Positions 21,001 to 24,000 of a stretch of 52,483 nucleotides of DNA are shown in pieces. The stretch lies in the IMG/VR virus record IMGVR_UViG_2877251553_000005; one strand, given 5' to 3'. The position numbers were made by a program. The DNA comes from a virus. Lineage: Duplodnaviria; Heunggongvirae; Uroviricota; Caudoviricetes. The stretch's first letter is position 1; each line of letters opens with the position of its first letter.

Positions 21001-24000
21001 CCCCTCTCCGGAGGGGCTGTTTATATTGATTTTGTCAGATGTGAGTAAACTCCTTATGGACTTTGTTGTTTTAGTCCATAAGGACATATTTGCAGAGTGC
21101 AACGGTTATTAAAGCATTCATTCAATACGTTATCTGTATTTGTAGGGCATTCCTGGCTGTTTTTGATTAAATTCCAGAATGTTTTATTGAATGGCACTAC
21201 GTTGTAAATGGTTACAGGTAGCACTTTGTTATTGAGCATGATGCCTGTGTGAGTCAGTGTAAATATACTTTCAGGAGGTAAGAAAGCATCCGATTGATAC
21301 CAGATTATTAATTTTATTTTACTCCATATGACTGAAAAAGATATTCCGCATGATGGCTGGATAACTGTATCAATCACAATCCACTTCATTTAGTTTCCTT
21401 GTTTATGTCTTGCTGGTGATGTTCTGAAAAGTATAAATGATATTTTTGATTGTAAACCATAGAGCAGAATTATTTTTCTGATGTTGTTTATTGTTTATTT
21501 AAATGCATGGTGGTTTATATCTCGTCTTGTAGTTTATCCATGCATATCTGCTTGATGATGAGGTTTTTATTTAAGGTATGGTTTTGTTTTTTTCTGTATT
21601 ACATGTCAGGTATTTTAAAGAATCATTTTTCAGATGGTGGAAAGAACCATGGCATTTAAACACTATGATGTTGTCAGGGCGGCGTCGCCGTCAGATCTTG
21701 CGGAAAAGCTGACACATAAACTGAAAGAGGGCTGGCAGCCGTTTGGTAGTCCGGTGGCCATAACCCCTTATACCCTGATGCAGGCGATTGCAGCAGAAGG
21801 TGATGTGGTCGTCAGTGGTGCAACTGAGCCGGAGTGGTACTACGTCATCGTACTGGCCGGGCAATCCAATGCCATGGCTTACGGTGAAGGGCTTCCGCTT
21901 CCGGATTCTTACGATGCGCCCCACCCACGTATTAAGCAACTGGCCCGTCGCAACACAGTGACTCCCGGTGGTAAAGCATGCGCATTTAACGACATCATTC
22001 CGGCAGACCACTGCCTGCATGATGTTCAGGATATGAGCGCACTGAATCATCCGAAGGCAGACCTGAGCAAAGGGCAGTACGGCTGTGTCGGCCAGGGCTT
22101 ACATATTGCCAAAAAACTGCTTCCGTATATCCCGAATAACGCGGGGATCCTGCTGGTACCATGCTGTCGTGGTGGTTCGGCATTCACCCAGGGCGCGGAG
22201 GGGACATTCAGTGCGGACACGGGGCCAGCCAGGATTCGGCACGCTGGGGTGTGGGTAAACCGTTATATCAGGACCTGATCGCACGCACCAAAGCGGCATT
22301 ACAGAAGAACCCGAAAAATGTGTTGCTGGCGGTGTGCTGGATGCAGGGCGAATTTGACATGAGCGCTGCCACCTACGCACAGCAACCGGACCTGTTCACG
22401 GCCATGCTGAAGCAGTTCCGTACTGACCTTTCCGGATTTAACGCGCAGTGCCATGGCGGCAGTGCTGCAGTTGTACCGTGGATTTGTGGCGACACGACGT
22501 ATTACTGGAAAAACACATACGGCACACAGTATGACTCCGTCTACGGCGCGTACAAAAACAGGGAGAGCGACAACGTTTTCTTTGTGCCGTTCATGACCGA
22601 CGGTAACGGCAACAACACGCCCACCAACTTACCGGCAGAAGACCCGGATATTGCTGATGCAGGTTATTACGGCGCGCAATCCCGTAGTAATGGTAATTGG
22701 GTATCGTCAAATCGTCCGACACATTTCAGTTCATGGGCGCGCAGGGGCATTATTTCGGATCGCCTGGCAACCGCTATTCTGAACGCAGTTGGTCGAACCA
22801 GCGCCTTCATCAGCGGTACCGCACCGGAGATTAAACCCTCGCCCGGCGGCGACACGCCATCGGGGCCGTCTGATGGTGACACATCCGTTCGTACAGTCTC
22901 CCTGCTGCCGACAGCCGGAGAGGCTGCTGCGCAGGGCTGGACCATCACCGGCGGCAGTGTTGCGCTGGAAGATGGTGTGTTTAAGGTTACCAAGCAGAGC
23001 AATAAAACCTGGTCCCTGATGCATCCGGTGGATGACGCAGTCTCCCTGCTGACACGGGGTGGCAGACTGAGCTGTAAGTTTCGACTGTCAGGCGCACTGA
23101 CCAACAACCAGTTCGGTCTGGGAATTTATCTGTATACCGATGTAGCGTTACCTGACGTCGTGGCGATGACCGGGACTGGTAACCCGTTCCTGATGTCGTT
23201 CTTCACCCAGACCACAGACGGCAAACTGAATCTGATGCATCACAAGAAAGCCGGAAACACAAAGTTGGGCGAGTTCGGGAATTACAGTAACGACTGGCAG
23301 ACGCTGGAGCTGGTGTTCACCGCCGGCAGTGCCACGGTTACTCCGAAACTGAATGGAGTGGCTGGCCCGGCATTCCAGGTCATAAAAGACAGTCTGACAC
23401 TGGGGCTGAATGCGCTGACGCTGACGGATATTACCAAAAATGCAGCGTATGGCGTTGAGATAGAAAGTCTGGTGCTGGAGATAAATGCACCGGCATCATC
23501 ATAAAAAGTGAGCCAGTCAAATGGAAGGTATCGTTAAACTCACCGGTAGTGTCAGTGGGTAGACTGGCCCCCTGAATCTCCAGACAACCAGTATCACTTA
23601 AATAAGTGATAGTCTTAATACTAGTTTTTAGACTAGTCATTGGAGTACAGATGATTGATGTCTTAGGGCCGGAGAAACGCAGACGGCGTACCACACAGGA
23701 AAAGATCGCAATTGTTCAGCAGAGCTTTGAACCGGGGATGACGGTCTCCCTCGTTGCCCGGCAACATGGTGTAGCAGCCAGGCAGTTATTTCTCTGGCGT
23801 AAGCAATACCAGGAAGGAAGTCTTACTGCTGTGGCCGCCGGAGAACAGGTTGTTCCTGCCTCTGAACTTGCTGCCGCCATGAAGCAGATTAAAGAACTCC
23901 AGCGCCTGCTCGGCAAGAAAACGATGGAAAATGAACTCCTCAAAGAAGCCGTTGAATATGGACGGGCAAAAAAGTGGATAGCGCACGCGCCCTTATTGCC

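Follow-up and report, generated by a model that had tools for sequence, protein, structure and literature searches.

The island between STnc100 and nanS-p

The window, by which we mean the whole 52,483-nt stretch of DNA analysed, contains a lambdoid prophage whose late operon runs in the order Q, methylase, tRNAs, two STnc100 copies, an antisense ORF, nanS-p and lysis genes. The DNA methylase, two tRNAs, both STnc100 copies, nanS-p, lysozyme and Rz are all encoded on the plus strand, and the antisense ORF, which proved to be the anti-adaptor gene iraL, on the minus strand. The features discussed below are as follows.

17080-17454, plus strand: RusA
17451-18272, plus strand: antiterminator Q (PF03589, 171.6 bits)
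20840-21028, plus strand: STnc100 sRNA copy B, flanking the island on the left (Rfam RF02076, 132.8 bits; gathering score 47)
20998-21019, palindrome, either strand: terminator of STnc100 copy B
21051-21084, minus strand: 12-bp hairpin over the last codons and stop of iraL (fold)
21054-21389, minus strand: iraL coding sequence, 111 aa, from the ORF list (stop TAA at 21056-21054)
21390-21422, minus strand: 5' leader of iraL, 33 nt, its start placed at 21422 from the 5'RACE result in CFT073
21390-21648, no strand: AT-rich intergenic region from which iraL and nanS-p diverge, GC about 0.28, holding the iraL promoter and upstream regulatory region
21430-21456, minus strand: putative sigma-70 promoter, read from the sequence relative to the mapped CFT073 start
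21485-21501, plus strand: PhoP-box-like direct repeat TGTTTA-N5-TATTTA, 11 of 12 specified positions matching
21649-23504, plus strand: nanS-p, right neighbour of the island (DUF1737, SASA esterase and DUF6645 by Pfam)

The first-pass annotation had described a sharp compositional drop at 21040-21633 and a 111-codon ORF running against the late transcript, and both observations hold. This segment has a GC content of 0.323, whereas the window averages 0.520 (sd 0.052 for 594-nt windows); the lowest-GC 594-nt window of the entire stretch starts at 21037, only 0.05% of windows are as low, and across the island a 200-nt profile drops from about 0.52 to 0.285 before climbing back to about 0.56. The ORF itself has a GC content of 0.348 and the intergenic part (21390-21633) one of 0.283. 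The ORF begins with ATG and is antisense to the late operon. The element to its left, previously called an sRNA-like copy B, is the Rfam family STnc100. On the right, the start of nanS-p at 21649 follows the RefSeq annotation of locus L001, and a longer frame begins at 21634. Alignment to the intact 618-aa gene of that locus gives a single 1-nt gap, at 22220; the deletion falls in a G-run there and breaks the nanS-p frame. An IS2 element lies just downstream of the gene. Among complete E. coli genomes, none spans the IS2 junction, the matches ending at 23566. The island thus occupies a slot between STnc100 and nanS-p within a late operon and has a composition unlike its surroundings, as expected of a moron.

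The antisense frame is iraL

The ORF is iraL, a known and characterised anti-adaptor gene on a lambdoid prophage. All 111 residues of its product (111/111) are identical to those of IraL (c1429, WP_000871291.1) from uropathogenic E. coli CFT073, and 335 of the 336 coding nucleotides are shared with CFT073 iraL (L004:13466-13801), the sole difference being synonymous. The IraL allele group has been defined by at least 95% nucleotide identity to CFT073 iraL over the coding region and at least 96% over the promoter and upstream region (PMC4045071). The coding sequence lies well within this definition, and the promoter side falls at its border, with 95.8% identity over the 259-nt intergenic region (blastn) and 30 of 32 bases matching at the mRNA start. 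The same intergenic region is 98.8% identical to that of E. albertii and of locus L001.

The analysis also establishes the family. The product matches the NCBIfam model NF007393, "anti-adapter protein IraM", at 162 bits, above the cut-off of 121 (E 4.7e-48, over profile positions 1-113 of 114), as well as phrog_4407 (3e-73), and it aligns without gaps to residues 1-78 of IraM in PDB entry 8twd, chain A (E 9.1e-32), from which we assign it the PmrD-like core domain formed by those residues. At the positions through which IraM contacts RssB in the crystal structure, 10 of 13 residues are identical in IraL: cluster I, whose residues face the receiver domain of RssB, is kept in full (5/5: I4, I6, W22, K26, I42), cluster II in 3 of 4 (T13S) and cluster III in 2 of 4 (H63N, I64V). 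The intact cluster I fits the published report that, of RssB's domains, IraL binds the N-terminal one alone. A Pfam scan of the product returned zero matches at E values up to 10, which is uninformative because bona fide K-12 IraM is also without a match; the protein database gives a precomputed PF11183 label despite this null result. Comparison with the Stx2c-phage allele gives a dN/dS ratio of 0.12 and comparison with K-12 iraM one of 0.14, values to be read with dS saturated, and the range of 0.10-0.14 among three allele groups that are 62-75% identical indicates that the ORF is under purifying selection.

Published experiments on the identical protein (CFT073 and S. sonnei) show that it binds RssB and stabilises RpoS, place the transcription start and demonstrate that the -100..+33 fragment drives expression. 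CFT073 IraL acts as an RssB anti-adaptor and stabilises RpoS in logarithmic phase (PMC4045071, Hryckowian et al. 2014): the protein binds RssB in a two-hybrid assay, the RpoS half-life is 5 min versus 2.5 min, with iraL deletion in CFT073 halving it in log phase, and a complementing fragment from -100 to +33, which carries the native promoter and a leader as long as the one here, raises RpoS in K-12 (PMC4045071). In published data, iraL mRNA rises by 1.6 log2 at 37 °C and IraL levels are higher in a fur mutant. The CFT073 gene, whose product was formerly called YcgW, lies in the potB-island lambdoid prophage and shares the protein, the slot and the leader length with the present copy, with a promoter region about 96% identical. 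The two prophages differ in that nanS-p is full-length but frameshifted here and truncated in CFT073, and in that the present prophage carries, upstream, a DNA methylase and two STnc100 copies and, downstream, an IS2.

Three related systems help to place the gene. K-12 IraM (YcgW/ElbA, b1160), the Mg2+-starvation anti-adaptor whose structure with RssB is 8twd, belongs to the same NF007393 family, and four C-terminal cysteines are conserved between it and IraL. However, it has 107 rather than 111 residues and shares only 62% amino acid and 70% nucleotide identity, far below the 95% that would mark an orthologue of K-12-type iraM; its gene adjoins the e14 end and the icd duplication, outside any late operon, with upstream DNA non-homologous to that of iraL, and the protein reportedly binds both RssB domains and acts under other conditions than IraL. 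The allele of Stx2c/Stx2a phages (WP_001303568.1; phages 2851, 1717 and others) has the same slot and orientation, lying antisense between STnc100 and nanS-p, and scores 159.9 bits with NF007393; its promoter region is homologous, including the PhoP-like repeat, and its product is 75% identical to IraL. It differs in lying directly after stx2, in its length of 107 aa and in the missing stop-codon hairpin. Our literature search found no experimental study of this allele, most phage records leave the gene unannotated, and a paper on nanS-p flanking regions (PMC10462455) does not mention an anti-adaptor gene; this third allele, directly after stx2B in Stx2c/Stx2a phages, appears unstudied. PmrD, a PhoP-induced connector that binds phospho-PmrA, is related through the fold, since published structural work describes the IraM core as a PmrD-like beta-barrel and both proteins as binding a response-regulator receiver domain and stabilising a phosphorylated-like state. 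PmrD differs in its target, PmrA and not RssB, and is not phage-borne.

Promoter, transcript ends and regulatory sites

The expression signals of iraL are conserved with those mapped in CFT073. A good Shine-Dalgarno sequence, AAGGA, lies at 21400-21396 on the minus strand, 6 nt before the ATG. The leader reads ACATCACCAGCAAGACATAAACAAGGAAACTAA-ATG, and the CFT073 mRNA start determined by 5'RACE reads ACATCACCAGCAAGGCATAAACAAGGAAACCA, with two mismatches between them. Upstream, a probable -10 hexamer TATACT (21435-21430) ends 7 nt from the start, and the best -35 candidate is TTTACA (21456-21451) with a short 15-nt spacer, so that the gene appears to have its own promoter, equivalent to the mapped sigma-70 promoter of CFT073. 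From the -35 region to the ATG, four bases differ from CFT073: one immediately 3' of TTTACA, one at -1 and two in the leader. A point mutation in the -35 region of some iraL copies has been noted to make their expression uncertain (PMC4045071); we consider that the present copy is probably expressed in its own host. A generic consensus promoter scan of the window missed this promoter, and the number of sites it predicted was no more than chance (4 found versus 3.5 expected). Its two minus-strand sites in the island, with the second hexamer ending at 21469 and 21311, were rejected as they do not fit the mapped start. The first-pass annotation had named three findings that would speak against a gene, namely no homologue, no ribosome-binding site and no antisense transcription, and none of them applies: homologues exist, among them the identical characterised protein, the binding site is good, and antisense transcription is supported through the 96-98% identical CFT073 locus rather than the source strain itself.

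The proposal that the palindromic terminator of STnc100 copy B also ends the antisense transcript fared less well. On the plus strand the palindrome is a canonical terminator, a 9-bp stem followed by TTTATATTGA (-20.3 kcal/mol); on the minus strand it forms a -19 kcal/mol hairpin followed by GAGAGUGGCGC. The shared-terminator idea is unsupported: this hairpin lacks a U-tract on the minus strand, where the sequence after it reads GAGAGUGG, and downstream of iraL the terminator scan reports no minus-strand site. The hairpin over the iraL stop codon is the other of the two hairpins 3' of the gene; it folds with -17.5 kcal/mol (z -4.96, reached by 0 of 200 shuffles) and is followed by AGUUUACUCACA, again no proper U-tract. 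It is possibly a 3'-end or stability element, and it is missing in the Stx2c and K-12 alleles, which both end four codons earlier.

No other site in the window is as good as the PhoP-box-like repeat, which is placed 63-79 nt upstream of the start of iraL, in the opposite orientation. When the AT-rich region is shuffled, 56 of 1000 permutations reach an 11/12 match, and the diverged Stx2c-phage allele has such a match at the corresponding position; we regard the repeat as a weak lead towards a PhoP site. Because IraL rises in a fur mutant, we also scanned for Fur boxes; a direct Fur site was rejected, the best intergenic match being 11/19 and equalled by 966 of 1000 shuffles. K-12 iraM is reportedly under H-NS control, and by analogy the low GC content may make iraL an H-NS target as well.

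Interpretation as a lysogenic-conversion cassette

The position of the gene in prophages is conserved. Of 5426 complete E. coli genomes, 1446 carry the island in this slot, as does E. albertii, and it also occurs in 45 phage records; 605 genomes match its exact 611-nt sequence at 99% identity or more. The order tRNAs, STnc100, iraL (minus strand), nanS-p is common to CFT073, another E. coli and E. albertii, and in an Stx2c prophage the same order is kept around an ira gene of a diverged allele. A scan of genome contigs with back-translated patterns gave six loci, all in Escherichia or Shigella, a result that sets no bound on the range of the family because such patterns catch close relatives only.

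We therefore read the island as a self-contained lysogenic-conversion cassette, a moron carrying iraL, with a probability of about 93%. The first-pass annotation had offered this as one of two alternatives, and it is favoured by the combination of foreign composition, an equivalent of the CFT073-mapped promoter, a ribosome-binding site and antisense placement in a lambdoid late operon. In a lysogen, host RNA polymerase with sigma-70 would start near 21422 on the minus strand, from the promoter inside the AT-rich intergenic region, and produce a transcript consisting of the 33-nt leader with its good Shine-Dalgarno sequence and the 111-codon iraL, running against the Q-dependent late operon passing on the other strand. 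The small protein IraL, with its predicted PmrD-like beta-barrel core, would bind RssB at the receiver (N-terminal) domain, and RssB could then not pass RpoS to ClpXP; RpoS would live longer, and the general stress regulon would be up already in growing cells.

The other early alternative treated the island merely as regulatory DNA for the late gene, with a chance open frame in the AT-rich nanS-p promoter or 5' UTR. AT-rich DNA, although rich in stop codons, may carry spurious frames, the GC content is 0.348 at each of the three codon positions, so that the ORF has no GC3 signal of its own, and there is no Pfam match. Nevertheless, identity to an experimentally characterised protein, an NF007393 score above the curated cut-off, the 8twd alignment (E 9e-32), a frame kept under purifying selection over three allele groups, a good ribosome-binding site and a mapped promoter leave this explanation with a negligible probability.

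Two further readings accept the gene and differ about its use. It could act like K-12 iraM, being responsive to Mg2+ starvation, activated by PhoP, silenced by H-NS and largely silent in growing cells. The PhoP-box-like repeat inside the functional -100 fragment, its kept position in the Stx2c allele, the very low GC typical of H-NS targets, the induction of iraL at 37 °C and the reported Mg2+ response of K-12 iraM all point this way. However, both protein and promoter are of the IraL type, IraL is both expressed and active in LB log phase (PMC4045071), the repeat is borderline above chance and its conservation may reflect common descent, and the text of the IraL paper is silent on Mg2+ (PMC4045071); we consider this reading unlikely, although it deserves some weight. 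It is also conceivable that iraL is a decaying passenger of a defective prophage, its frame intact and the gene no longer expressed or useful. The nanS-p frameshift and the IS2 just downstream suggest that the prophage is eroding, and the four base differences from CFT073 could be seen in the same light. Against this, there are zero non-synonymous changes relative to CFT073, the -10 hexamer, start region and Shine-Dalgarno sequence are intact, and the near-identity of the island in 605 genomes makes the promoter variant a common one and not a private lesion, so that decay seems quite improbable.

A 2014 publication had already described the gene with its product, target and promoter, as well as its patchy occurrence across E. 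coli and Shigella, and in RefSeq the gene already has a name, IraM. For the present prophage, the lysogenic-conversion reading means that the island is a gene acting on the host rather than regulatory junk, which accounts for both the compositional anomaly and the antisense frame. A broader proposal, speculative and in our estimate rather unlikely, is that the slot downstream of the tRNA/stx/STnc100 block in lambdoid late operons is a conserved docking site for IraM-family genes, with cassettes that respond both to PhoPQ, by way of the -63..-79 repeat, and to the state of the prophage. If this were true, head-on Q-antiterminated late transcription would shut the ira gene off on induction, and prophage carriage, including that of Stx phage in O157:H7, would set the host RpoS level in a condition-dependent manner. 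The third allele and the conserved PhoP-like repeat may deserve attention in work on Stx phages and RpoS.

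Identity of the antisense gene in the AT-rich island

The first-pass annotation described an AT-rich island with an opposite-strand ORF, and the G+C scan and the ORF list bear this out as written. G+C content is 32.3% at 21040-21633 against a window average of 52.0%; among all 594-nt windows the lowest starts at 21037 and 0.05% are equally low, and the 200-nt profile passes from ~0.52 through 0.285 to ~0.56, recovering inside nanS-p. The ORF is antisense to the late transcript, since the genes around it, which are late genes of a lambdoid prophage, are all on the plus strand.

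Late-region features around the ORF
17080-17454, plus strand: RusA
17451-18272, plus strand: antiterminator Q (PF03589, 171.6 bits)
18847-19905, plus strand: DNA methylase
19946-20105, plus strand: two tRNAs
20371-20564, plus strand: STnc100, first copy (sRNA family RF02076)
20840-21028, plus strand: STnc100 copy B (sRNA family RF02076)
21054..21389, minus strand: the ORF (iraL), 111 codons, ATG start, from the ORF list
after the island, plus strand: nanS-p (DUF1737, SASA and DUF6645)
in turn after nanS-p, plus strand: IS2, DUF1327, lysozyme, Rz

The 111-aa product matches NCBIfam NF007393 (anti-adapter protein IraM) with 162 bits (curated cut-off 121), and its residues 1-78 align ungapped with the crystallised IraM core 8twd (E 9.1e-32). 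Two E. coli allele groups have been published, iraM of K-12 and iraL of uropathogenic CFT073, whose proteins are 58.9% identical (Hryckowian et al. 2014, PMC4045071). The ORF is one synonymous base apart from the CFT073 gene WP_000871291.1 and the proteins are identical, whereas identity to K-12 IraM is 62% for protein and ~70% for DNA; on this comparison, the ORF is iraL. CFT073 iraL was placed "on the potB genomic island" (PMC4045071); the region that we fetched is a lambdoid prophage (L004), in which the gene (L004:13466-13801, minus strand) has STnc100-like sequence on one side and a truncated copy of nanS-p on the other. By megablast, 1446 of 5426 complete E. coli genomes carry the island, in nearly all cases over its full length and with 95% identity or more; the RefSeq label beneath these matches is "anti-adapter protein IraM". 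The island gene is the already known iraL, for which public annotation uses the family name IraM; its PHROGs entry is phrog_4407, function unknown. A local Pfam-A scan gave no match for the ORF at E up to 10, and equally none for K-12 IraM, while PF11183 is the precomputed Pfam label on all IraM/IraL relatives in the protein database, which is a tool discrepancy and not biology.

We compared three allele groups, namely iraL of the window, the allele of an O157:H7 Stx2c prophage (L003, 107 aa) and K-12 iraM (L002, 107 aa). They are colinear across 107 codons, and the Stx2c-prophage allele is 75% identical to IraL. The dN/dS ratios of the three pairs are 0.12, 0.14 and 0.10 (Nei-Gojobori), with synonymous sites saturated (dS 1.15-2.03), and these low ratios show strong purifying selection on the IraM/IraL protein. 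The suggestion that the ORF might be a chance open frame was therefore wrong: it is rejected by the identity to the characterised CFT073 IraL, the NF007393 match and a dN/dS of 0.10-0.14. At the chromosomal iraM locus of E. coli ECGI0523 (L010:3001-3159), iraM is frameshifted after ~22 codons, leaving a 52-aa product, which shows that the family can decay too.

RssB binding and RpoS stability

The adaptor RssB hands RpoS to ClpXP, and anti-adaptors bind RssB and so block delivery. Deletion of iraL in CFT073 halved the log-phase half-life of RpoS (~5 to 2.5 min), iraL put back under its own promoter restored RpoS stability and raised RpoS in K-12, and in two-hybrid assays IraL bound the N-terminal receiver domain of RssB, whereas IraM bound both domains (PMC4045071). 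The iraL of the window would act in the same way, by analogy with these experiments on an identical protein. The IraM-RssB crystal structure has three contact clusters; PmrD is reportedly the only protein with a fold like that of the IraM core. Between IraM and IraL, 10 of 13 RssB-contact residues are identical, including all five of cluster I on the receiver-domain side (I4, I6, W22, K26, I42); the differences (T13S in cluster II, H63N and I64V in cluster III) lie on the C-terminal-domain and linker side. This pattern is as expected from the two-hybrid result, and the Stx2c allele (A13, N63, V64) has a similar one.

Promoter, regulation and 3' end of iraL

A ribosome-binding site is present before the start codon, with AAGGA in Shine-Dalgarno position at 21400-21396, 6 bases 5' of the ATG. 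The RACE-mapped 5' end of CFT073 iraL mRNA is ACATCACCAGCAAGGCATAAACAAGGAAACCA (PMC4045071), and its window counterpart is ACATCACCAGCAAGACATAAACAAGGAAACTAA, followed by the ATG. This alignment places the putative start at 21422 with a 33-nt leader, a length that agrees with the "+33" limit of the CFT073 fragment (-100 to +33 plus coding region) that complemented an iraL deletion and raised RpoS in K-12 (PMC4045071).

Putative promoter elements of iraL
21435-21430, minus strand: -10 hexamer TATACT, 7 bases upstream of the start
21456-21451, minus strand: -35 hexamer TTTACA, best candidate, 15-nt spacer

Four substitutions set the window apart from CFT073 in the stretch from the -35 region to the ATG: the leader has two, and the others are at -1 and directly 3' of TTTACA. 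In some iraL copies a -35 point mutation leaves their expression uncertain (PMC4045071). However, 605 genomes match the exact island of the window with 99% identity or more, so this form is a common one.

Warming CFT073 from 23 to 37 C raises iraL mRNA by 1.6 log2, and a fur mutant has more IraL. The fur effect is probably indirect, since the best Fur-box match of the intergenic region is 11/19, a score that 966 of 1000 shuffles attain and that is thus not above chance. K-12 iraM is reportedly silenced by H-NS, and similar silencing of iraL would fit its low G+C content and temperature response. A PhoP-box-like repeat, TGTTTATTGTTTATTTA at 21485-21501, matches KGTTTA-N5-KGTTTA at 11 of 12 positions and is the only such match in the window; it is on the opposite strand, 63-79 nt before the iraL start and within the -100 functional fragment, and its score is borderline, being reached by 56 of 1000 shuffles of the AT-rich region. 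The promoter region of the Stx2c allele has visibly diverged from that of iraL, and it has CGTTTATTCTTTGTTTA at equal distance from the ATG (11/12, with the imperfect half-site swapped). The resemblance may reflect regulation by PhoP, as in K-12 iraM, or common descent alone, and we regard the repeat as a weak lead rather than a finding.

The idea that the ORF shares the terminator of STnc100 copy B was not supported. Read on the plus strand, the palindrome at 20998-21019 is a canonical terminator, with UUUAUAUUGA after a 9-bp G+C stem; read on the minus strand, the stem forms again (-19 kcal/mol) but leads into GAGAGUGGCGC, without a U-tract, and the terminator scan lists no minus-strand terminator there. 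iraL has its own hairpin at 21051-21084 (12 bp, 10-nt loop, -17.5 kcal/mol, z -4.96), followed by AGUUUACUCACA, a poor U-tract. Its 3' arm encodes the last two iraL codons and the stop, and because of this hairpin, absent from the other two alleles, IraL ends in …KQQSP, four residues longer than both.

Moron status and the allele of Stx phages

The order tRNAs, STnc100, antisense ira gene, AT-rich spacer and nanS-p recurs in five loci: the UK bloodstream isolate L001, CFT073, another E. coli (L006), E. albertii (L005, protein identical) and the O157:H7 Stx2c prophage, where stx2c is inserted between the tRNAs and STnc100. K-12 iraM has the coding region alone in common with iraL; its flanks are unrelated, and the gene adjoins the e14 end. 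The island thus behaves as a promoter and gene cassette bound to one late-operon slot, which, its terminator aside, is what defines a moron; the moron reading of the first-pass annotation was correct.

The following were also observed in this prophage. A G-run at ~22220 has lost 1 nt compared with the intact nanS-p of L001 (618 aa), so that the gene here falls into two frames, 21634-22278 and 22161-23504; it may be a true pseudogene, or the loss may be a sequencing error in a homopolymer. IS2 (~23567-24880, with InsC/InsD-like ORFs at 23606-24016 and 23974-24879) lies between nanS-p, which it directly follows, and the lysis genes. None of the complete E. coli genomes in the set has its junction, so the window may derive from Shigella or from a strain that the set does not sample. 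The tRNA at 19946-20021 is Met (CAT) by ARAGORN and has a tRNA-Ile (lysidine type, ileZ-like) as RefSeq homologue; there are two tRNAs here versus three in CFT073 and the Stx2c phage. Other Rfam matches, at 14882-15057, 5316-5367 and 50909-51107, are sok antitoxin RNA (hok/sok module), DicF and IS009.

In the phage collection, the iraL type occurs in 4 induced phages and the ~75%-identical type in 41 records, mostly Stx2c-, Stx2- and Stx2a-converting phages, most of which carry no annotation at the ira gene. The latter type is a third IraM-family allele (WP_001303568.1, 107 aa; L003:4001-4324, strain O157:H7 7.1_Anguil), antisense between stx2cB/STnc100 and nanS-p and also found in phages 2851, 1717, Stx2a_F349, WGPS2/4/6/8 and others. 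Its identity to K-12 IraM is 66%, its NF007393 score 159.9 bits and its dN/dS ~0.1. We found no study of WP_001303568.1 in the literature, and the survey in the IraL paper (PMC4045071) would have counted it as neither iraL nor iraM. In the Stx2c prophage, stx2cB is directly followed by one STnc100 copy (L003:4335-4546), versus two tandem copies between the tRNAs and iraL in the window. As they are adjacent both here and in the Stx2c prophage, STnc100 and the ira gene travel together, the sRNA terminator abutting the ira gene 3' end. The third allele, directly downstream of stx2 in Stx2c and Stx2a phages, and the conserved PhoP-like repeat are by-products of this analysis that may be worth study.
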